Source: a virus. Taken from it: a stretch of 64,000 bases of DNA. The notes beneath the pieces were generated by a model, which saw only the letters and a list, made by a program, of their open reading frames with translations, was not told the DNA's origin and made no database searches. Below, piece after piece: positions 4,395 through 23,034 of this stretch. The position numbers were made by a program, and so were the translations under genes. Position 1 is the first letter of the stretch. Each line of letters opens with the position of its first letter. Location: the IMG/VR virus record IMGVR_UViG_3300023181_000005, positions 5,427 through 69,426 of that record. One strand, written 5' to 3'.

Positions 4395-5755
4395 TATTTC
4401 TTTGGTGGATACTTGTTAACGAGATCCTCAATAGTCTTATCTGATAAGACCTTCGCGGCGGCAGGGGGTGCGGCTGCTTTCTCTTGCTCCGAGTGGGCCT
4501 TAATCACATCTTCCGCAAAGGCTTTGAGCAATTCATTGTTGGTGACTGTTTGCGTTCCAAATCGCAAATTCCCTGGCTCATCAAATGCAGCCCCATTTGG
4601 GTCAAGGCCAAGCTTCTTAGCTACCAGCACCCCATAAGGCACTTGTCCAACAACACCAACATTATCATCGACATAACTTGGGGTATCTGGATCTTCCGAT
4701 GGCAATTCGTCCAAAATAGCACGGGCAGCAATCAACTGTAAATCAGGCGATGGATAGGCTTTTAGGAAAGGATTAATCAATTTCGACTTGGCTGATGTCC
4801 ATGCCTTAGCCGCCTCTTGCTCCTCTTGAGCGGCCTTATCCATTGCTCCTTTTTGGGCGATGAATTGTTCCGGCGTGACCCCTTTAGGAATACGCTCACT
4901 TAAAGGTTTGAATGTGACGGCTGGAACTAGGCTTTGAGCCTCCGGCACGGGCGCGACTTTTGGCTCCACAACCGCAGGAACAACGGCAGGCTTGGTCTTT
5001 TCGAGGCCAGCCCACAAATAACCATTATCGCGGGCAGTCTGCGCGTACTCTTTAGCTAGCTCGGGGTCCATTTGCTTCAACTCCAAATACTTACCAAGCA
5101 TCTCGGAAGTAACAGCCCGCTCACGCCGAGGGTCACTTTTCACTGACTCAACGGCACGGGCCACCTTCACGGGGTCGTACATGCCATCTTGCCCTTGGAG
5201 GGTTCCCCAAGTTTCTTCTGGCACGCCTGCCGCCGCCAACTCCTTGGCCTGATTGTCCTTAAACTCAAGCAGACGAACTTGCTCAAAGGCTGTATGCGGG
5301 TCCGCTCCACCTTCAAGGAGTGCGTTATACTCCTGAACGTGACGAGGATCTTTAATCTTGAGTGCCAGTTGAGGGCCTAGAACCTGAGTCGAGAGGCGTG
5401 ATGGACGTTGCTCACGCTGACGAAATCCAACGTACGCTGCATTCTTTGGGTCCGAGAGGACTTCAGGGCTGATGGTTTGCAGCATCTTCTCGTAGCTGCT
5501 TCCGGGCGCAGTCTTGCTGAAATCGTAGGCGGCATCTTGCGCTTCCCATTCGCGACCTTGTCGCAATTGAGCGCGTTGCTGTTCCGCCTGAGCTTGCAGG
5601 ATCGCGTCATCCTCACGAAACGCAGCCTGCGACACGGGCGCAAAGGATGGATCTAACGCTTCATCGCCACCTTCTGGCCGGAAGTACTGCATGAGCGGAT
5701 GGCGACCAATCCCAAAATATTGATTAGCGCGAGGGAGTGCAGATGGAGGTGGCAT
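4394..5755 (-). CDS. Hypothetical protein, probable internal virion (ejection) protein
   Basis: 453 aa helical Ala/Glu/Gln-rich ORF between the adaptor-like gene and the giant polyvalent gene, coupled to the latter. Function inferred from position. Confidence 0.55.
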   Translation of the reverse strand: MPPPSALPRANQYFGIGRHPLMQYFRPEGGDEALDPSFAPVSQAAFREDDAILQAQAEQQRAQLRQGREWEAQDAAYDFSKTAPGSSYEKMLQTISPEVLSDPKNAAYVGFRQREQRPSRLSTQVLGPQLALKIKDPRHVQEYNALLEGGADPHTAFEQVRLLEFKDNQAKELAAAGVPEETWGTLQGQDGMYDPVKVARAVESVKSDPRRERAVTSEMLGKYLELKQMDPELAKEYAQTARDNGYLWAGLEKTKPAVVPAVVEPKVAPVPEAQSLVPAVTFKPLSERIPKGVTPEQFIAQKGAMDKAAQEEQEAAKAWTSAKSKLINPFLKAYPSPDLQLIAARAILDELPSEDPDTPSYVDDNVGVVGQVPYGVLVAKKLGLDPNGAAFDEPGNLRFGTQTVTNNELLKAFAEDVIKAHSEQEKAAAPPAAAKVLSDKTIEDLVNKYPPKK

Positions 5756-8294: not shown

Positions 8295-10454
<2,160 letters not shown>

Positions 10455-12769: not shown

Positions 12770-13426
12770 TTAAAATGCGGATGATGAAGCCTGAACCACA
12801 TCGTAGTAAGTACGAAGGGCTGCGATAGATGTAGTGGTTCCAAGATACAGCCTATCAGCATTGGATGTGCTTGTGCCATCAGATGACACGCAGGTTTTAT
12901 TTGAGCTTGCGACAAAAGTTGGCTTCACATCAGAAGTGGCCCAGCCTGCCCTAGCAATCGCGTTAGAGCCAGTACCCTTGACGTATTCAAACCAAATCCA
13001 AATAGTCGTGCCTGTTGGCATCGTGTCGGAGGATTGGTTGAGCGTGCCCCCTGAAGCGGTGACAGTTAGGAGGCGAGTGCCGCGACTGGTTAACGTAGCT
13101 AATAGTGTGGTACCGTTACGGATTGAAGCGATAACAGCGTTGGATGTTGGCGTTGCAGCAACCTGAAACTGGAACTTTACAAAGAGCGAGCTTTGCGATG
13201 TGAAGGCGGTGAATGTCGATCCTGTTTGAGATACCAAGTTGATTTCAAGAGTCTGTGTGCCTTGAATAACCACAGCACTTTGCGCTGGAGACACCGTACC
13301 AGTCCCAGCGCCAGTCCATGTTTCACCGTTATCGTAACCCGTTGTAGGAGTTTCAAACGTCTGGTTTACAAGAAGGGCCTGACCCCTCCTTCGGCTGCTG
13401 GCAATGACTGATAGGATTCGGCTCAT
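12770..13426 (-). CDS. Thr/Ser-rich beta-sandwich (lectin-like) fibre-tip/receptor-binding candidate
   Basis: 218 aa beta-rich ORF coupled to the collagen gene. Confidence 0.5.
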   Translation of the reverse strand: MSRILSVIASSRRRGQALLVNQTFETPTTGYDNGETWTGAGTGTVSPAQSAVVIQGTQTLEINLVSQTGSTFTAFTSQSSLFVKFQFQVAATPTSNAVIASIRNGTTLLATLTSRGTRLLTVTASGGTLNQSSDTMPTGTTIWIWFEYVKGTGSNAIARAGWATSDVKPTFVASSNKTCVSSDGTSTSNADRLYLGTTTSIAALRTYYDVVQASSSAF

Positions 13427-14160
13427 TAAACAAGATCCCAGATGTTCGTCCCCACTTTCTTTAGGGCGAAGGTGTTATTCTGAACCATGCTAGCAACCGC
13501 CGCGACATTGTTGATCGTGGCGCTGGTACTGAAAGTTGGAATGCCTGCCGCTGCAATGCGGAAGTCGATTTCAGTATTTGCCACCCATGCCTGAGTTACC
13601 TCAAGCGGAAGGGTGATTGTGCATGGCGACCCATTAGTGAGGCGAAGGTACTTGCCAGCATCAGCTAGGGCGAGGCTGTAGGTTGTGCCAGTAACAGTGC
13701 CTACTGGAGCATAAGGAGCGCCAGTTGGACCCGCTGGACCTGGAGGTCCAGTTCCGCCTGCTGGGCCGGTTGGACCCGTTGGCCCTGTGCCACCAGCGGG
13801 ACCAGGAGGCCCTGTTCCGCCAGGAGTTCCTGGTGAACCAGTGCTGCCTGTTGGCCCGGCTGGACCAGGAGAGCCTGGAGTTCCAGGTGCGCCGTTAGGA
13901 CCAGTCGGCCCCGTTGGTCCAGGGCTTCCTGCTGGACCTGGGGACCCCGCAGGGCCGGGGCCACCAGGGGAACCTGTAGCCCCCGTGGGACCACTCGCGC
14001 CCGTTGGACCTGTAGATCCAGGTGAGCCGGGAGCGCCTGGACTACCCGGAGGACCAGGAGCGCCAGTTGGGCCAAATGGCACGCCAATAGCCGTCTGCAT
14101 AGCCGCTTGGTCTGCGGCCTGCATGAAGGTATCTACGGCGGGTGATGTTACGAGGTCCAT
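13426..14160 (-). CDS. Second collagen-like fibre protein
   Basis: About 40 uninterrupted Gly-X-Y triplets ([12 protein letters not shown]), then a [12 protein letters not shown]...TITLP...KKVGTNIW domain common in phage fibres. Confidence 0.9.
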
Positions 14161-15455: not shown

Positions 15456-16097
15456 ATGAGTCATCAAGCTGAACCCAGCATACGTCTGCGTGGTCATCCG
15501 CGCAAGGAATTGCCGAGCATTGAATTTTTGCGTGAGTGCTTCACGTACGAGCCGGAAAGCGGAATTTTGAGATGGAACAAGAGGCCGGTCCATCATTTTG
15601 TGGGTCAGGGGAAAGCGAATGCTTGGAATGCTAAGCTTGCTGGCAAAGAGGCTGGCAGCAAATGCTGTAGGCCGGATGGTTCCAAGCGGTATATGGACGT
15701 TGGGCTCGGCTCCTTCGGAAAGAAGGCGTGCCTCTACTCGGTCCATTTGATTATTTTCAAAATGCAGGGAGTTGATATTCCAGTTGGCCACGAGATTGAC
15801 CACAAGAATAGAGATCCCCAAGATAACCGATGGGAAAACCTTCGCGTGTGTACGCCTCAAAATAACACTTGGAACAGAAGGGGTCATCGCAAGAAAAAGT
15901 CAGGTCTACCTAAAGGTGTTTTTTGGGATAAGGGATGTTTAATGTCTAAAATCAGGACGAATGGAAAATATACTGGACTTGGATATTTTCATTCAATAGA
16001 GGAGGCTAGCAAAGCTTATGAAGACGCATGCAATGCTTTTCACGGAGACTTTGCCTGCCCCTCCAATTCCCCTCAAGTACCTCTTGAGGGGCTATAG
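15456..16097 (+). CDS. HNH endonuclease with AP2-like C-terminus (free-standing homing endonuclease)
   Basis: FTYEPESGIL, EIDHKNRDPQDNRWENLRVCTPQNN, KGV...LGYFHSIEEASKAY...FHGDFA. Confidence 0.9.
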   Translation: MSHQAEPSIRLRGHPRKELPSIEFLRECFTYEPESGILRWNKRPVHHFVGQGKANAWNAKLAGKEAGSKCCRPDGSKRYMDVGLGSFGKKACLYSVHLIIFKMQGVDIPVGHEIDHKNRDPQDNRWENLRVCTPQNNTWNRRGHRKKKSGLPKGVFWDKGCLMSKIRTNGKYTGLGYFHSIEEASKAYEDACNAFHGDFACPSNSPQVPLEGL

Positions 16098-16103
16098 GTT
16101 GCT

Positions 16104-17276
16104 CTAGTATGAGCAACCTAGGATTCCTACCTGTGGGCACCTACGGACACGCAGTACATAGCCATAACGGATCTTAGCAGGCTTCCACGCGGCTTGGAGA
16201 GGAGCGTAGTACTTGCCAATGTTGCTTAGCGGATTTTCAGTCTCGCTCGGAATGTTCTTCCAGAGCAATTGACCACTCCAATTGACTGCTTGGCCGGAAG
16301 TCATGCCGCCAACCGACCCAAGTGGCTTCGGCATCTGGCGAATCACAACCTCAGGGTGCCACAGATACACATCTTCAAACTCAGCGTTCGTGTAAGCGGC
16401 GCTCACATTAGCCTCAAGGCCGATGGTTGTTGCACTCGATGTGTAGTATGGACGAGGCACCCAAGCGCCGTTCACAAAGTCGTAACGAGGCATGCGGTTG
16501 TCGATACAGTGCATGAAGCCACCGTACACACGGTCAACACCCCAACTTTGCATCAGAACAGCACCATCGCTCTTGCCGGAGTCAGCCCAACGGAAGTCAT
16601 CACGAACGGAAGGATCGCCCTTGATAACGTCACGGCTACGTTCCATCGACATGATGGCCGTAATGAGAGGAGCGCCGTTGCGTTTAGCGTAAGCTTCCTT
16701 GCCGCCACCATCTTGGATGATGCGAACATAAAGCATGTCCAGCAAGCTCTGCGTGAGAATACTCGTCGCAGGAGTTGCTGGCATCGTGGTGCCGTTGGTC
16801 GTCTCGGTGAGAGACTGATTGTACACAATCTTGTGACCAGAGTTGAGGAAATACTTTTCCTTGTCCTTGTCTTCCCAGGTGTCGGTAACTTCGGCAACAA
16901 GGTTGTCTTGGATGGCCTTCACCTGATCCTCAAACATGTAACCACGCCGAGCATCTTCAAAGCAGATAGGCGCAGACTTGATCATGTTCGCTTCTGCCGT
17001 GTAGCTCAGAAGAGTCGAAGCAGGAGAAACAACGGAGGCGGAAGGAACGCAGTTATTAACGCTGCCGTCTTCTTGGACTACAGCCGTCCAGCCATTGCCG
17101 CCAATGCCAGTAGAACGCTGGTAAACGACGGAGTTGAAGTTGAAGCCCATGCCATCGGGCAGTTCGCCCTTTTCCATAAGAGCCGATACACGGCCCTCAT
17201 TACGCATGATTTCATAAATTTTACCCTGAAGACGCGAAGCATCTTGTTCAAAATAGTTGTCGAGAGGAGTTGCCAT
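16104..17276 (-). CDS. Major capsid protein
   Basis: 390 aa, follows portal and scaffold, has its own near-consensus promoter and long leader. Confidence 0.8.
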   Translation of the reverse strand: MATPLDNYFEQDASRLQGKIYEIMRNEGRVSALMEKGELPDGMGFNFNSVVYQRSTGIGGNGWTAVVQEDGSVNNCVPSASVVSPASTLLSYTAEANMIKSAPICFEDARRGYMFEDQVKAIQDNLVAEVTDTWEDKDKEKYFLNSGHKIVYNQSLTETTNGTTMPATPATSILTQSLLDMLYVRIIQDGGGKEAYAKRNGAPLITAIMSMERSRDVIKGDPSVRDDFRWADSGKSDGAVLMQSWGVDRVYGGFMHCIDNRMPRYDFVNGAWVPRPYYTSSATTIGLEANVSAAYTNAEFEDVYLWHPEVVIRQMPKPLGSVGGMTSGQAVNWSGQLLWKNIPSETENPLSNIGKYYAPLQAAWKPAKIRYGYVLRVRRCPQVGILGCSY

Positions 17277-17534: not shown

Positions 17535-18689
17535 TCAGCCAACTCCCTTTAGGGTCTGTGCAGCAGCGCCCATAAGAGTCAGCTTAGGCCCGCTATCTTG
17601 CTGTTGTGCTGGCGACTGACCATCCATAGAAGGACGGGCTGCGATCCTGGCTTTCTCAGCCTTCTTGAGAGCTTGCAGTTCGGCCCGCATCTCCAAGAAC
17701 TGTTTGGTAATAGCTGGCAGCAAGACCGCAGCTTGAGCGTGATACGCACGATCCATCACCGTTTCAGGCTTAGGCGCGGCATCAAACTCCTTACGCAACT
17801 CAGGGTCATTCTTGAAGATTTCGGCAAACTTCGGACCAATGCTACTCGCCACTTCCTTGTAGGCATTGGAGTACTCAGCTTCCGATTTCTGCGTTTCAGC
17901 AGCCGTCATCTTCTCCTTCTCGCCCTTGAGCGAGGTTTGAATCTCCAAAGCTTTAGCTTTCAACTGCTTTTCCTTGGCTCCAATGTCATGCAAGGCTTTA
18001 GCGGCAATGTTTACCTCGGGCAGAATAGCAGACACATCCTCAGTAGATTCAGCCAGTACGGCAGCAACATCCTTCGCCCGCTTGAGGGGATTTGTCTCTT
18101 GAGTGGCCGCAAGGATCTTGTCTAGCGCGATGCCGGAGAACTCCGATACCTGCTGAAAGTACTCCATTTTCTCGTTCCACGGAGTCACTACGCTCTCAAT
18201 GAAGTGCGGTTGATTCTGCAAATCGAAGCCTGCACGCCACTTGCGATGATCTTCAAGCTCCTTGGAAACATCCTCAGGCACAGGCGGCTTAGTCTCGTAC
18301 TCTTGAAGCTTGGCACGAAGATGCTCCAACTCAGGTTTAAGAACCTTGTGCTCTGCCTCAATGGCGCGAAGCTCTTTCCAGCGGGATTCTTTTGGCGTGG
18401 CATCGCCCTGAACCTCAGTTTCCGCAGGCTTTTGCGTACTATCTACAGTAGCCTCCACCTCTTCAGCTTTCACCTCAGGAACTTTATCCCACGCGCTAGG
18501 CTTGGCGGTCTTGGCGTCCAGCTTAGGCGCTGGCGCTTCAGACTTAGGGGTTTGTTGCGCTGGCGGGGTTGGCGCTGCTGGTGCGGCAGGCGTACCATTG
18601 CCAGCCATCTGAGCAACGGTTGCGGCAGCGGCTTGACCGAGTGCGCTTGAAGAGAATCCTGGAACTGATGGGGCGGCGGCTTCTGACAT
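17535..18689 (-). CDS. Putative scaffolding protein
   Basis: Pro/Ala-rich N-terminus, long Glu/Lys coiled coils, directly upstream of MCP. Confidence 0.7.
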   Translation of the reverse strand: MSEAAAPSVPGFSSSALGQAAAATVAQMAGNGTPAAPAAPTPPAQQTPKSEAPAPKLDAKTAKPSAWDKVPEVKAEEVEATVDSTQKPAETEVQGDATPKESRWKELRAIEAEHKVLKPELEHLRAKLQEYETKPPVPEDVSKELEDHRKWRAGFDLQNQPHFIESVVTPWNEKMEYFQQVSEFSGIALDKILAATQETNPLKRAKDVAAVLAESTEDVSAILPEVNIAAKALHDIGAKEKQLKAKALEIQTSLKGEKEKMTAAETQKSEAEYSNAYKEVASSIGPKFAEIFKNDPELRKEFDAAPKPETVMDRAYHAQAAVLLPAITKQFLEMRAELQALKKAEKARIAARPSMDGQSPAQQQDSGPKLTLMGAAAQTLKGVG

Positions 18690-18691
18690 AA

Positions 18692-19030
18692 TTATTTGGG
18701 TTGGTTAGCAAGCTGGTACTCTTTCGATATTGAATCCTCAAACTCAGGGACTTCTACATCCACCATCTCATCGGGGGCCAAGTTGGGTGGGTACATCATG
18801 CCGCGCAGAGTTGCGATAGCTTCAGCAACGCCTTTACGGAACTGCCGGTCATGCGCCAAAGTCGAGTCATACGGCAGCCCTGGTCGTTGATCGGGGTCAG
18901 AGCGCGGAATAGCCGCCATTTCGATAGCTAGTAGCGCAGACTGAAATGTTGAGCTTTTTTGCAATTCAGCCAAGGCATCACGACGAATGCTCGACTTGCG
19001 GAACTGAGTGATTTGTGATGAAGAGAGCAT
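18692..19030 (-). CDS. Small hypothetical head-module protein
   Basis: 112 aa between portal and scaffold, coupled to the upstream gene. Confidence 0.6.
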   Translation of the reverse strand: MLSSSQITQFRKSSIRRDALAELQKSSTFQSALLAIEMAAIPRSDPDQRPGLPYDSTLAHDRQFRKGVAEAIATLRGMMYPPNLAPDEMVDVEVPEFEDSISKEYQLANQPK

Positions 19031-19575
19031 TAGGCTAATGGGTTGACTGGAATCTCATTCGACTCTTTAAGGCGTCTTGCCGTTTCCACGTAATCCACCC
19101 GCCAATCTGTTCGAGCACTAAATCTTCCGATATTGCTCAATGGATTGAGGCGTTCACTTGGGGCATTATTCCATTGCACAATATAAGGACCAAGAAGCTT
19201 TTTGGATTTAACTGAATCCATTAATGTTTTAGCTATATTTTCCGCGTGCTTCTGAAAAGCTTCGCTATCGCGTCTAGCATCCTCAAAGCACAACTTTTCG
19301 GAAAAAATTGGCTCCTCTACCACAAAAGTAGAACCAATTTCGCTGCATCTAAACCAATGATTTAACGCATCCTCCATTCTTTTTGCTTCCCCGCAAAAGA
19401 ATCGGTCCAGCGGAGTCGCCTGTGACCCCCATCCAATTAATTCCCGAGAGGACTTTATGGGCTCACTAGCCGCTACGGGAGTTGGTTCCGCCTGCGGTAC
19501 TAACGCTGGTGATTTGGTGGCAAATAAACCACTAAAGAAGGCTACTATTGTCTGAATGAAGCTTCGTTTTTTCAT
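19030..19575 (-). CDS. Miniature MCP paralogue with Tat-like N-terminal leader
   Basis: Shares ATPLD, CFEDARR and W.N.PSE..NPLSNIG blocks, in order, with the MCP; N-terminus MKKRSFIQTIVAFFSGLFA. Confidence 0.75.
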   Translation of the reverse strand: MKKRSFIQTIVAFFSGLFATKSPALVPQAEPTPVAASEPIKSSRELIGWGSQATPLDRFFCGEAKRMEDALNHWFRCSEIGSTFVVEEPIFSEKLCFEDARRDSEAFQKHAENIAKTLMDSVKSKKLLGPYIVQWNNAPSERLNPLSNIGRFSARTDWRVDYVETARRLKESNEIPVNPLA

Positions 19576-21830
19576 GCTGATTTTCTGTTCTTGAGTTTCT
19601 GATTACGGAGATCCGCTGCGGTGCGAGCATCGTTAAAAGCAAGCTCTTGGGCGTTCTTCTGGCGCATATGGTTAAGCTCCATCTTCTTCTTGGCGAGGTC
19701 GAGCCCAACAGACTCAAGTTTAGCTTGAGACTCCACAGCCTGAACAAGCATCCCTGGAGATATTGCATCCCCTCCACTCTGTTGCGCTCCTTCTTCCTGG
19801 CCACGTTGCGCCTCGGCGTCGATATGCTTCTTGCCGTTGATGATGACTTCACCCAACTGCTCCAACGCTTCCTTGTACTCGCGTACACTTGGGTTCTCGG
19901 GGTCGAGATAAGGCATGTGTTGATTCGCGTGATCCCAGATTGGGAACATCTGATTAATGGCAGGCTCCATCTCAATCTGCATTTCAGTGAGTTTACCGTT
20001 GATTTCGGTCAACCGCTGCAAATGTGTCTGCACATGAACCATGTGATCCTGATTCGGAATCACGTTGGCAGGTTGTCCGAGTGCCATCAGATCATTCTCC
20101 AGACCAGCAATCTGTAGGTCAACAGGCGGACGCAAGCCAGCCACAGGAGGAACGAGACGAGACGCATACCGAGTGCCTGCATAGGCGGCGGCTGTATCAC
20201 GGGTGAGCATTTGCTGGCCTTCTTGGTCCAGGCGGTAGTAAAGCTGTTCATTGAGGACTCCTAAAACAGATTTGCGCTCGGAGGCGGAACCTTTACCGAT
20301 GCCAGTATTGATTTCGATCCGGTCAATATCTACCGCATCAATCGCTTCACCAGGAACGCCACGCTCAAGACAGCGGCGACGAAACTCCCACACTTCAGCA
20401 CCCCCAGGCTCGGCGGCAGAGTAATCCTTGCGGCAAATGCGGCGAACGATTTCCTTGAAGTGACGCCTCCACGCAGCAAAGAACAAGTTCATACCAGCCG
20501 AGGAGAGTTTGCCCTGTTGCTCGGTCTTCATCTGCCACTCGTACTTGGTGCGCTGAGTGTTGTCCGTGCCATTGGCAGATACCGGAGAGTATGGCATGGC
20601 CCGTGCCCGGTAGATTTCCTTGATCTGCTCAATGGCGGGAACAAGATTCTGCGCAAATGGCGGCATCATCTTCTCCACGAACTGAAAGCCTGACTGGACT
20701 ACCATGTAAGGCCCCATTGGGCGCACGGCATTTTCTTGGCCCGCGTCTTCGTTGTCACACTGAAGGTAAGGAGTAGCGGCATGAATTGCCATATCCAACT
20801 CCTTGCAGATCAATCGGTTAAGCCCCGTTGAGGACGAGAATAGTTTTTGCCCAAGGCCGCGAATAGATTGGAAGTCCCCATTCGACCCAACGCCATAGAG
20901 GTAGGCGAACATGACGCTCGACATGGCGCGATGCTTGCCTTCGCATTTGTAGAGAAACTCGCCATTACCATCCATGCGGGAGATGTACTGCGAAACCGTT
21001 CCATCCACTTCACGTACCCAACCGTGAACCGTCTCAACACAGGAGACCGTAGTTCCGAGATTGATGTCGTTGTCCTTCCATGCCTTCTCCCACTCTTGCG
21101 GATCATTAGTGGGAAGCGTGTGCTGGGCGCAAGTATCCTTGATGGCCTCAATGACTGCATTGCGATTCCAGTAAGAATCCTCTGCAACTTTGGCATTCTC
21201 CACTTTTCGGTAGAGTTCATGCGGCAGCATGTCCACTTTACAGGTCACAATGTCGATCTTGTTGACGTTGGCCGGAATGCGCCGTGGAAACTTGAGAAAC
21301 TGCTGGCCGTAGATGCGGTAGCGCCAATCCTGTTCATCCTCATGGAAAGCGAAGCTAACGCCTTCAGCCACAAACAAGTGCGCGTTCTGCTGCCAGAGCG
21401 GGTGAAAGTCATCCCAGTTCTTGAGCATGCGAGTGATCTCCTCAGAAATCACCGTGCCCCAAGTGTCCTGACTCTTCTCGTCACCAAAGGAAGTTGGGAT
21501 GTCGCCAAACACATCCAACGCATCCAAGATGTCGTTGTAAGGCATCTCAGCCTCCTCTTGTGCTTGAGCCGCCAAGCCCCAGTTGACGTTGACTCGACCC
21601 GAAATCCCCTCAGACCGATCTTTCCCAGGCGCATAAGGTGGAGCGCCGTCGATCATGGACTGATACAAAGCTCGCTGGCGGGAAGCCTGCCAATCCGCTG
21701 TGTGCAAAGTCCAGTAGGTGCTGATGAGTGCCTGCGGATCTTTAATGCGGCCTCTCTTGATGAGTTCGCCATCCTCGCCGGTGATGGTCGGGATATTATT
21801 GTACTGCGGAGGCGTGGGGGATGCGCTCAT
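19572..21830 (-). CDS. Portal protein
   Basis: 752 aa, first large gene of the head module, with a Gln-rich coiled C-terminal barrel as in P22/T7-like portals. Confidence 0.75.
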   Translation of the reverse strand: MSASPTPPQYNNIPTITGEDGELIKRGRIKDPQALISTYWTLHTADWQASRQRALYQSMIDGAPPYAPGKDRSEGISGRVNVNWGLAAQAQEEAEMPYNDILDALDVFGDIPTSFGDEKSQDTWGTVISEEITRMLKNWDDFHPLWQQNAHLFVAEGVSFAFHEDEQDWRYRIYGQQFLKFPRRIPANVNKIDIVTCKVDMLPHELYRKVENAKVAEDSYWNRNAVIEAIKDTCAQHTLPTNDPQEWEKAWKDNDINLGTTVSCVETVHGWVREVDGTVSQYISRMDGNGEFLYKCEGKHRAMSSVMFAYLYGVGSNGDFQSIRGLGQKLFSSSTGLNRLICKELDMAIHAATPYLQCDNEDAGQENAVRPMGPYMVVQSGFQFVEKMMPPFAQNLVPAIEQIKEIYRARAMPYSPVSANGTDNTQRTKYEWQMKTEQQGKLSSAGMNLFFAAWRRHFKEIVRRICRKDYSAAEPGGAEVWEFRRRCLERGVPGEAIDAVDIDRIEINTGIGKGSASERKSVLGVLNEQLYYRLDQEGQQMLTRDTAAAYAGTRYASRLVPPVAGLRPPVDLQIAGLENDLMALGQPANVIPNQDHMVHVQTHLQRLTEINGKLTEMQIEMEPAINQMFPIWDHANQHMPYLDPENPSVREYKEALEQLGEVIINGKKHIDAEAQRGQEEGAQQSGGDAISPGMLVQAVESQAKLESVGLDLAKKKMELNHMRQKNAQELAFNDARTAADLRNQKLKNRKSA

Positions 21831-22036
21831 GGTTTCTTAATTTCCCCATTCTCTACCGGATTACAAGACTTTTCCATTTCAGCGGCGTTGCAGTAGTTCA
21901 ACCACAGCGCCTCAGTCAGATAGGATAAGCCGCGAGCACCCGCATGAGTCCGAATCCGACGCACTATATCCGCCGAAGCGGTCAAGTTTACTTTGCGTCT
22001 GGTGCGTTTTTCGGGTGGCATTTCGTATGCGCCCAT
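21827..22036 (-). CDS. Ribbon-helix-helix-like DNA-binding protein
   Basis: RRKVNLTASADIVRRIR...LSYLTEAL; ATGA overlap with the portal gene. True start may be MPPEK at 22021. Confidence 0.55.
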   Translation of the reverse strand: MGAYEMPPEKRTRRKVNLTASADIVRRIRTHAGARGLSYLTEALWLNYCNAAEMEKSCNPVENGEIKKP

Positions 22037-22079
22037 TGTCTATGCGGACAGTAGGCAATGCAACCACAAAGATGCGAGG

Positions 22080-22108
22080 TTGCACATATGGGCATGTTTT
22101 GGTAGGTT
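22080..22108 (+). promoter_or_regulatory. sigma70-type promoter of the lysis genes (leaderless); a divergent promoter lies at about 22034-22062
   Basis: TTGCAC-N17-TAGGTT-N7-ATG; minus strand TTGCAT-N17-GACAAT. Confidence 0.55.
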
Positions 22109-22115
22109 TCAGCAC

Positions 22116-22313
22116 ATGAGAAACATCGCCACCTACATCGCCCATCGTTTAGCTGAACCGTCAACCTACAGAGGTCTGATTGGCCTTCTCACTGCCGCTG
22201 GAGTCGCCATCTCCCCTGACATGGCCGAGAAAATCATCGCCGTTGGCATGTTCCTCATTGGCCTTATCAACATCGGTAAGAAGGACGCAAACTCACCTGA
22301 CGCCACGAAGTAA
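22116..22313 (+). CDS. Putative holin
   Basis: 65 aa with two hydrophobic helices (EPSTYRGLIGLLTAAGVAISP), upstream of the amidase. Confidence 0.7.
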   Translation: MRNIATYIAHRLAEPSTYRGLIGLLTAAGVAISPDMAEKIIAVGMFLIGLINIGKKDANSPDATK

Positions 22314-22317
22314 GAGT

Positions 22318-22446
22318 ATGACTCTTATCCTACTCGCCTTCGCTATCGTTTGTGCCCTCCTAGCCTCAGTCGGCGTCGGCGCTCCTCGCTTCCACCTCGG
22401 CTGGATGGCGCTCGCCCTTTACCTCATCACTCTGATTCTGCGATAA
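22318..22446 (+). CDS. Small membrane protein in the lysis cassette
   Basis: 42 aa with two hydrophobic segments. Confidence 0.5.
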   Translation: MTLILLAFAIVCALLASVGVGAPRFHLGWMALALYLITLILR

Positions 22447-23034
22447 ATGAAAATCACCCCCGATCATTGGCTGGAAGGCGTTAAGCGTGAACTGCTCCCT
22501 GGTGGATCGCCAATGCCAGTGAGGCGCTTCTTGGTAATTCACCATACGGCGGGAGCATCTGCCATGTCCTCTATCAACTTCTGGCGAGAACCAGAAGCGC
22601 GAGGCGCTTGTGCTCACATCGTCATTGATCGTGACGGCACCATTTACCAGTGCCGCCCATTCAACATCACCTGCGGGCATGCAGGCGTTTCTAAGTGGAA
22701 AGATCCCAAGACGGGAAAGGAGTACTCGGGCTTGAACTCCTGCTCCATTGGTATTGAACTAGCGAATGCTGGCGATGATGAGGCCCTGGCGAAACGGTGG
22801 ACCAAACTGCCACTTATCACTGCTCGCCACAAGAACGGCGGCCCCATCAAGAAATGGGAGGATTACCCACCCGCCCAAATGAAATCCTGCGAGGAAGTTT
22901 CGAAAGCGTTGGTGAAGAGGTATAATTTGGATGACCTAGTTGGGCATGACGACATCGCTCCAACTAGAAAAATTGATCCTGGTCCCGCCTTCGATATGAA
23001 GGCGCTTAGGGCTGCCTGTGGGTTTAGCGACTAG
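22447..23034 (+). CDS. Endolysin, N-acetylmuramoyl-L-alanine amidase (Amidase_2)
   Basis: LVIHHTAG, AHIVIDRDG, HAG, NSCSIGIE, VGHDDIAPTRKIDPG. Confidence 0.92.
   Translation: MKITPDHWLEGVKRELLPGGSPMPVRRFLVIHHTAGASAMSSINFWREPEARGACAHIVIDRDGTIYQCRPFNITCGHAGVSKWKDPKTGKEYSGLNSCSIGIELANAGDDEALAKRWTKLPLITARHKNGGPIKKWEDYPPAQMKSCEEVSKALVKRYNLDDLVGHDDIAPTRKIDPGPAFDMKALRAACGFSD

Follow-up and report, generated by a model that had tools for sequence, protein, structure and literature searches.

Capsid proteins are regarded as dedicated shell subunits, and paralogues of them are already known, as exemplified by gp24 of phage T4, a paralogue of gp23. Among the small phage proteins that carry a signal or membrane anchor, T4 Imm, Sp and RI and T5 Llp counter superinfection or time lysis from a site in the periplasm or membrane. 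The SaPIbov5 protein Ccm is reported to be homologous to capsid proteins and to redirect the assembly of helper-phage capsids (PMC8569155), and CapRelSJ46 recognizes the P-domain of an HK97-fold major capsid protein (MCP) and is activated on binding it (PMC9712102). Here we examine a 64,000-nucleotide stretch of viral DNA (the window, bases 5427-69426 of the complete 69,426-bp IMG/VR record IMGVR_UViG_3300023181_000005, which carries direct terminal repeats) and, within it, a 181-amino-acid (aa) open reading frame (ORF) at 19030..19575 on the minus strand, hereafter the mini. It is an intact, selected and lineage-specific gene derived from the gene of the 390-aa MCP (16104..17276, minus strand), with domain-precise deletions and an export-type leader.

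Results

Homology Between the Mini and the Major Capsid Protein

The protein of the parent family was characterized from an AlphaFold2 model built on 49 homologues, for which the predicted local distance difference test (pLDDT) score is 81.7. Foldseek matches this model best to the capsid protein of phage N4 (9e99_A, E value 7.9e-10) and also to that of HK97 (2ft1_G, E 3e-7), and the 390-aa protein, with 102 homologues in all, is by its model an HK97-fold MCP. The mini has a far smaller family: a word-based search of 5.8 billion proteins returned one homologue, P0002 (194 aa, 48% identical), encoded on a 6,049-bp contig, and an exhaustive profile search of 1.84 billion representatives yielded three minis in all, those of the window, P0002 and P0105 (191 aa), which are all intact and share 46-48% identity.

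Similarity between mini and MCP is concentrated in three blocks that stand in the same order in both proteins, as claimed in a preliminary description of this DNA made from its letters. BLASTP recovers block 3 at E 2e-6, with 19 of 41 residues identical, and block 2 at E 0.002, with 13 of 33; block 1 (ATPLD..F...A.R) falls short of significance by itself. The Smith-Waterman local score of 75 is reached by none of 2000 shuffled sequences (mean 31.6, standard deviation 4.7, maximum 64), and chaining the three blocks with cheap long gaps gives 142.6, relative to 52.8 for shuffles (standard deviation 8.6; 0/1000 reach the observed score; z 10.4); the comparison with shuffled controls, named beforehand as one of those able to overturn the claim, is thus significant. 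At the level of families, hhalign aligns minis and MCPs with a probability of 92.6 (E 4.6e-7) over mini residues 50-124 and MCP residues 1-132, a profile-profile match that covers the N-arm and spine segments, and a profile of the three minis matches 102/102 MCP homologues at E <= 100, the window MCP being the best of them at 47 bits. Each mini is individually significant against the MCP, the most MCP-like being P0002 (E 1.3e-12 against the window MCP). Furthermore, C96, W135, N137, N144 and G150 (mini numbering), all within retained parts, are invariant in the three minis and 45 MCPs (48/48). About 95-125 mini residues align to the MCP and some 270-295 MCP residues are absent, which agrees with the earlier estimate of approximately 270. 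Overall, the paralogy of mini and MCP is firm, and so, with the codon and substitution data given below, are the age of the copy and the selection acting on its peptide.

Anatomy and Structural Model of the Mini

The segments of the mini, listed from the N-terminus of its product, and the gene of its parent family are as follows.

19030..19575, minus strand: whole mini pre-protein gene, 181 aa, with overlapping start and stop codons and two homologues (P0002, P0105)
19504..19575, minus strand: residues 1-24, putative export-type leader composed of MKKR (+4 including the N-terminus), 16 uncharged residues (5-20), K21 and S-P-A (alignment, hydropathy)
19423..19503, minus strand: residues 25-51, Pro-rich linker ending in the motif S.RE.IGWG (family alignment; low pLDDT)
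19345..19422, minus strand: residues 52-77, counterpart of the N-arm helix of the MCP (residues 2-25 there; block ATPLD..F...A.R) (alignment; model helix 55-77)
19309..19344, minus strand: residues 78-89, short connector replacing about 70 MCP residues of the E-loop region (MCP ~27-98) (alignment and MCP model)
19201..19308, minus strand: residues 90-125, strand end, CFEDARR and shortened spine helix (MCP 99-~134) (BLASTP, profile comparison, model)
19174..19200, minus strand: residues 126-134, connector KLLGPY.V., conserved among the three minis, replacing the A-domain (MCP ~135-338) (alignment and MCP model)
19096..19173, minus strand: residues 135-160, counterpart of the P-domain strands near the C-terminus of the MCP (residues 339-~366 there; W.N.P.E..NPLSNIG) (BLASTP, alignment, model)
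19030..19095, minus strand: residues 161-181 and stop codon, variable C-terminal tail with a model helix at 162-172 of lower confidence (alignment, model)
16104..17276, minus strand: parent-family gene, the 390-aa HK97-fold MCP (AlphaFold2 model, Foldseek, 102 homologues)

The mini model, built on an alignment of the three minis and 45 MCPs, has pLDDT values of 79-97 over residues 52-160 and contains helices at 55-77 and 104-125 and strands at 131-136 and 149-156. Mapped onto the MCP model, in which the corresponding elements are helices 4-26 and 115-145 and strands 338-340 and 353-366, the retained segments coincide with the N-arm helix, the first two thirds of the spine helix together with the strand end and CFEDARR before it, and the C-terminal P-domain strands. 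The missing stretches are the E-loop region (MCP 27-98), replaced by 12 residues, and the A-domain (MCP 135-338), replaced by 9, so that the deletions fall at HK97 domain boundaries and what remains, as modeled, is the N-arm with most of the P-domain. A complete HK97 fold with E-loop and A-domain is absent from the model, which consists of two long helices and two strands; the fold being incomplete, the mini does not qualify as a capsid subunit. Just before the MCP-like part, the S.RE.IGWG motif is conserved in the mini family and absent from the MCP, and at the other end the tails of the three minis can be aligned only as far as about residue 171. When the mini model was compared by VIA-align, 20 of the 50 top rows were HK97-fold capsids or encapsulins, at weak Z scores of 3.4-5.3 (2e0z: Z 5.3, 99 residues). 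A search of the ESM Atlas with the mini gave no usable match.

Cysteines are a separate feature of the parent family: four of them (C76, C105, C380 and C388 in window MCP numbering) are among the 18 columns invariant in 49 MCP-family sequences, and the mini retains the second only (mini C96).

Selection, Age and Composition

The codons of the shared peptide have diverged extensively. Between mini and MCP, 5 of the 7 codons of NPLSNIG and 3 of the 7 of CFEDARR differ synonymously, counts that the preliminary description had given exactly, and across the three blocks 19/29 identical residues are encoded by different codons, suggesting that the copy is old and its peptide retained. The window mini and P0105, the mini of contig L043, differ at a proportion of 0.77 of synonymous sites (pS, saturated) and 0.37 of nonsynonymous sites (pN), and the ratio of nonsynonymous to synonymous substitution rates (dN/dS) is well below 1, its exact value being precluded by saturation. 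Together with the three intact ORFs, these values uphold the earlier claim of selection on the peptide rather than a decaying duplicate. For the same pair of genomes dN is 0.51 for the mini, twice that of the portal gene (0.25), and 0.56 for the 112-aa gene that follows the mini. In a tree of 125 shared columns the three minis group together (support 1.0) on a long stem (1.17) inside the MCP family, and the supports for the neighbor of this clade are 0.32 and 0.67; we consequently claim a single origin and name no donor.

The window mini has a GC content of 0.445 and a third-codon-position GC content (GC3) of 0.40, relative to 0.534 and 0.61 in the portal gene and to GC3 values of 0.61 and 0.51 in the flanking genes, and only 1.3% of 546-bp windows across the 64 kb have a GC content as low. 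In L043 the GC3 of the mini is 0.51 versus 0.80 and 0.71 in its flanks. The mini is a low-GC compositional island in both phages. A different departure is seen in two collagen-repeat genes of the window (8295-9629 and 13426-14160, minus strand), where a high GC content (0.61-0.62) accompanies a low GC3 (0.40-0.45), the reverse of other structural genes, a pattern presumably forced by GGN/CCN codons.

The N-Terminal Leader

All three minis start with MKKR[ST]F[IL]Q, where M1, K2, K3, R4, F6 and Q8 are invariant (3/3) and the only variation at positions 5, 7 and 9 is between S and T, I and L, and T and S, respectively. In each of them the +4 N-terminus is followed by exactly 16 uncharged residues (5-20; Gly/Ser/Thr-rich), an invariant K21 and small residues at -3/-1 (SPA, VEA, VEA) of a cleavage site placed by eye, the type of signal being judged by inspection and hydropathy only. 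By these means the leader has the positive n-region, the hydrophobic core of about 7-16 residues and the small -3/-1 residues of a Sec-type signal, as well as a core of weak hydrophobicity that is followed by a basic residue, as in twin-arginine translocation (Tat) signals, whose motif is S/T-R-R-x-F-L-K. The best 15-residue Kyte-Doolittle mean of the mini leaders is 1.5-1.7, versus 2.4-2.95 for the holin-like helices of the phage itself, so that a cleavable signal fits better than a membrane anchor. The leader therefore looks export-type and signal-peptide-like, with a Tat-like layout, and as its motif is near-invariant even though the minis are 46-48% identical, sequence-specific recognition is suggested. 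The Pro-rich linker that had been described after the leader is present, with 5 Pro in residues 23-41.

Further leaders of this kind were sought. A word search with mini residues 1-52, insensitive for such short stretches, returned only the mini itself among 3 candidates, and a search of the window and 41 loci for the leader pattern yielded a single similar-looking ORF, in locus L013 (described below), a 45-aa ORF of locus L008 that also fitted the pattern having been set aside. A type IV pilin-type leader was considered and rejected, as by eye the Phe is not preceded by a Gly and position +5 lacks a Glu.

Genomic Slot and Family Distribution

On the minus strand the head module reads portal-like gene (752 aa), mini (181 aa), 112-aa gene, scaffold-like gene (384 aa) and MCP (390 aa), and the genes around the mini are the following.

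19572..21830, minus strand: 752-aa portal-like gene directly upstream of the mini, with overlapping codons (size, position and Atlas neighbors only)
18692..19030, minus strand: 112-aa gene directly downstream of the mini (adjoins the portal gene in relatives without a mini)
17535..18689, minus strand: 384-aa scaffold-like gene (position, composition and synteny only)

The ATG of the mini overlaps the TGA of the 752-aa gene (ATGA), and its TAA overlaps the ATG of the 112-aa gene by one base (TAATG). These overlapping stop and start codons at both ends set the mini between the portal-like and 112-aa genes, the latter being followed by the scaffold-like gene; the preliminary description had correctly located the ORF in the portal-to-scaffold interval, which also holds the 112-aa gene. 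No promoter or terminator sites beyond chance were found for the mini, and both of its ends overlap its neighbors, which does not fit a moron with its own promoter and terminator; moron-like traits are nonetheless present in its composition, unlike that of the flanking genes, and in its patchy distribution.

P0105 lies on the 2,419-bp metagenome contig L043, which comprises the C-terminus of a portal protein, the mini and a homologue of the 112-aa gene. Each of the two junctions is an ATGA overlap, and there the mini occupies a slot identical to that in the window. The MCP is found at 40 loci in IMG/VR, where the mini profile matches full-length MCPs only and BLASTP finds the mini in 0/40; the portal is present in 37/40 and the 112-aa gene in 29/40 (BLASTP), and in 8 more an ORF of 108-137 aa takes its place, usually abutting the portal. 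When 20 related records were searched whole (16 of them at least 90% complete), the mini was found in 0/20, every match lying inside a 422-443-aa MCP frame, and no other capsid piece behind an export-like leader was seen in them. Absence from these 40 loci and 20 records indicates an insertion confined to a narrow lineage. Searches of 50,697 phage records by tblastn with mini and MCP, and of viral_contigs with the MCP alone and with the mini alignment, returned nothing. The preliminary description had pointed to relatives as the place to look for intact homologues, and two exist, that of L043 at the same position.

The region also receives other genes. Locus L013 has in the same slot between portal and small gene an unrelated 181-aa ORF (4999-5544, plus strand) with a true twin-arginine leader (MNRRTF...LFA), a GC3 below that of its flanks and no Pfam family; hhalign and BLASTP show no similarity to minis or MCPs beyond the leader, and we rejected it as a diverged mini. 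Given this ORF, the portal/112-aa junction seems to be a site where exported-looking accessory genes settle. A 168-aa CHAP-domain gene (L006:5920-6426, plus strand; Pfam E 1.6e-7) stands between the 112-aa-gene homologue and the scaffold gene in a second locus, and in a third the portal and the small gene are separated by a 105-aa ORF without a family assignment (L030:5784-6101). The head-module region around the portal, 112-aa and scaffold genes is a hot spot for accessory genes.

Flanking Genes and Origin of the DNA

A Pfam and PHROGs scan of the mini, MCP, scaffold-like, 112-aa and portal-like proteins gave only a weak phrog_29123 match for the MCP; the MCP and portal profiles had 0 matches each among PDB sequences, and Pfam returned nothing relevant for 12 portal homologues. 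Among the Atlas neighbor clusters of the portal-like protein, SU10_portal occurs in 11-32% of members and P22_portal in 14%, and the portal label of the 752-aa gene, given from its size, position and these neighbors, is a lead and not a proof. The 112-aa gene belongs to no family and matches the mini in its rate of evolution; it is a core gene of the head module that has no name as yet. A 213-aa HNH_3 gene (15456-16097, plus strand; Pfam E 5e-14), apparently for a homing endonuclease, is encoded on the strand opposite to the capsid gene, at a distance of 7 bases from the end of the latter. A lysis cassette (21993-23034, plus strand) diverges from the portal gene; it has two small ORFs with strongly hydrophobic helices (Kyte-Doolittle 2.4-2.95) and, after them, a 195-aa Amidase_2 endolysin (Pfam E 1.2e-29).

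The only match among 185,579 species genomes is a fragment of an MCP (L044:2309-2707, plus strand) with 54% identity across residues 2-135, which lies at the end of a 2.7-kb contig assigned to a Planctomycetaceae metagenome-assembled genome; as a host indicator it is too weak to name a host. The sole public sequencing run with window DNA is labelled leaf litter metagenome, a weak hint of habitat.

Discussion

We propose that the mini functions as an accessory gene in a single narrow lineage of phages and that its product acts in the cell envelope as an exported mimic of the capsid surface, and we assign this tentative reading a probability of about 0.45. As to its origin, one copy of the capsid gene that this lineage uses for its HK97-fold MCP has dropped the E-loop and A-domain at domain boundaries and retained the N-arm helix, spine helix and two P-domain strands, and it carries an export-type leader and a Pro-rich linker that the MCP does not have. 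The overlapping stop and start codons suggest expression that is late, together with the head genes, and translationally coupled to the portal gene. With A-domain and E-loop gone, general knowledge of the HK97 fold implies that the mini could not build capsomers and would not be a shell subunit. Its leader may target it to or across the cytoplasmic membrane via Sec or Tat; Tat would be the best fit (KKRSF[IL]Q motif, weak core, invariant Lys after the core), with the mini then exported already folded.

Function is the weakest step of this proposal: the half-capsid module would present, in the envelope, a binding surface that mimics the N-arm/P-domain face of the capsid. In capsids that face contacts neighboring subunits, scaffold, portal, DNA and internal proteins, and its only natural ligands to reach the periplasm are proteins ejected by incoming virions. 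On this ground we suggest, with low confidence, that a periplasmic capsid-surface mimic might bind ejected proteins of superinfecting relatives, for their exclusion or sensing, a logic that would be comparable to that of T4 Imm/Sp or of the RI antiholin sensor.

Several results weigh against the proposed envelope mimic. Foldseek of the mini model against the PDB gave nothing significant (best E 0.27), the best VIA-align row (Z 5.4) is an unrelated protein, and because MCPs dominate the alignment from which the model was built, its capsid-like shape is partly circular. The preliminary description had called the leader Tat-like, and this stands for its export-type layout, basic residues, weak core and K21 but not for the motif itself: consecutive Arg-Arg is absent, the three members reading K-K-R-[ST]-F-[IL]-Q, so that the leader falls outside a strict definition of Tat signals, and the curated Tat models PF10518 and TIGR01409 are not matched (Pfam for the window protein; NCBIfam for all three minis, with chance-level rows only), a test that is insensitive, as the genuine twin-arginine leader of the L013 ORF likewise has no Pfam match. 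Public sequencing data offer one DNA run with window DNA, probably its source and containing one identical contig with no variant or joint, and no RNA run. Finally, exclusion functions are usually early, which makes a late gene coupled to the portal an unexpected site for one, and the capsid-mimic module has no known ligand.

The position of the mini within the head module, coupled to the portal gene, suits a cytoplasmic head-assembly or minor virion protein whose module docks on MCP, scaffold or portal vertex (for example so as to fill or cap sites around the portal), the N-terminus serving as a tether or as a removed leader, as in some ejection proteins. By general knowledge of HK97-fold capsids and the map from our models, the retained MCP parts face scaffold, portal and neighboring capsomers, and a low GC3 could mean low expression, as for a low-copy protein; yet the E-loop and A-domain that make lattice contacts are gone, the leader is export-like, and with the mini in 0/40 related loci and 0/20 records, related phages evidently assemble their heads without it. 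We consider such a role unlikely. The membrane tether for assembly put forward in the preliminary description is not favored on the same distribution, which shows no need for such a gene, nor by the positive-inside rule, which would set the MCP-like part outside the cytoplasm, on the periplasmic side. More remote from assembly, an envelope or lysis accessory unrelated to capsid mimicry (i-spanin-like, antiholin-like or a Tat-pathway blocker) might merely reuse an MCP-derived fold. In size, N-terminal hydrophobic segment and helical periplasmic part the mini recalls i-spanins in outline, the lysis cassette (21993..23034, two membrane ORFs and Amidase_2) begins just beyond the portal gene, and no spanin was recognized in the examined part of the window. 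An i-spanin/o-spanin pair was nevertheless rejected, as no lipobox ORF of an o-spanin lipoprotein is embedded in or adjacent to the mini; moreover, with 16 residues the uncharged stretch would make a short membrane anchor, relatives lyse without the mini and its conserved residues are those invariant in the MCP family, all of which makes a lysis role very unlikely.

The preliminary description also offered a decoy for cytoplasmic capsid sensors, and a bait for host capsid-sensing defense would either soak up the sensor or, with a Tat leader, carry it bound out of the cytoplasm. Tat can export folded proteins, and a narrow accessory distribution with atypical composition is often seen in anti-defense genes. 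The retained part includes the P-domain, which is the surface recognized by CapRelSJ46 in SECPhi27 Gp57 (PMC9712102), but in that case binding of the MCP activates the CapRel toxin, so that a free P-domain should trigger the sensor and not block it. A +4 N-terminus with 16 uncharged residues would, in addition, export the MCP-like part away from a cytoplasmic sensor, late and portal-coupled expression would give no head start over the MCP, and neither a defense gene nor a host is known for this phage, no PADLOC search having been made; we do not favor a decoy and hold this explanation to be distinctly improbable. A highly improbable variant would have a Tat leader fused to a half-capsid bait that folds in the cytoplasm and binds a capsid-recognizing host protein, such as an immune sensor, the pair then being exported by hitch-hiking; if true, Tat hitch-hiking export of a capsid sensor would be a new anti-defense principle. 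That the mini is a decaying, functionless partial duplicate of the capsid gene is hardly credible. Only three members are known and the public runs with window DNA include none of RNA, but all three ORFs are intact with saturated synonymous sites and a pN of 0.37, the boundaries of domains are where the deletions lie, two phages share the overlapping start and stop codons, and the leader and the IGWG motif are conserved; intact members, conserved overlaps and selection together contradict decay.

What sets the mini apart is that half of a capsid fold, behind an export-type leader, has been kept under selection through a long divergence. If export is real, a capsid surface would be used outside the cytoplasm, which was found in none of the literature searched as far as its available text extends, and would point to an unrecognized step in phage-phage or phage-envelope interplay; if the mini is instead a portal-vertex or assembly factor, it would represent a new kind of minor head protein. 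The same literature describes in its available text no domain-deleted capsid paralogue with a signal peptide, in agreement with the preliminary description, which knew no equivalent: the novelty would lie not in the existence of a capsid paralogue but in the combination of a leader with a cut-down capsid architecture.

Comparison with Known Systems

The mini leader shares with Tat and Sec signal peptides a basic n-region, the sequence x-F-[IL]-Q, a weak 16-residue Gly/Ser/Thr core with a basic residue behind it, and small -3/-1 residues, and differs from Tat signal peptides in having K-R in place of RR in 3/3 members and in matching no Pfam or NCBIfam Tat model. The small envelope proteins T4 Imm, Sp and RI and T5 Llp are unlike the mini in that none is known to be capsid-derived and most are early genes, whereas the mini stands in a late head operon. 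The MCP that triggers CapRelSJ46 shares with the mini the P-domain elements that the latter retains (PMC9712102); CapRelSJ46 is, however, a cytoplasmic sensor activated by binding, whereas the mini carries an export-type leader and is not known to have a sensor.

Among capsid paralogues, T4 gp24 resembles the mini as a diverged second copy of an HK97-fold capsid protein, selected and encoded in the head module. It keeps the whole fold, forms the pentons of the shell and is not known to have an export leader, whereas the mini has lost E-loop and A-domain, carries a signal-type leader and is accessory, being found in 0/40 related loci. SaPIbov5 Ccm is likewise reported to be a capsid-protein homologue encoded apart from the MCP gene and acting through capsid-like surfaces, but it is satellite-encoded and takes part in capsid building (PMC8569155), whereas the mini is encoded by the phage itself and has been cut to parts of the N-arm and P-domain.

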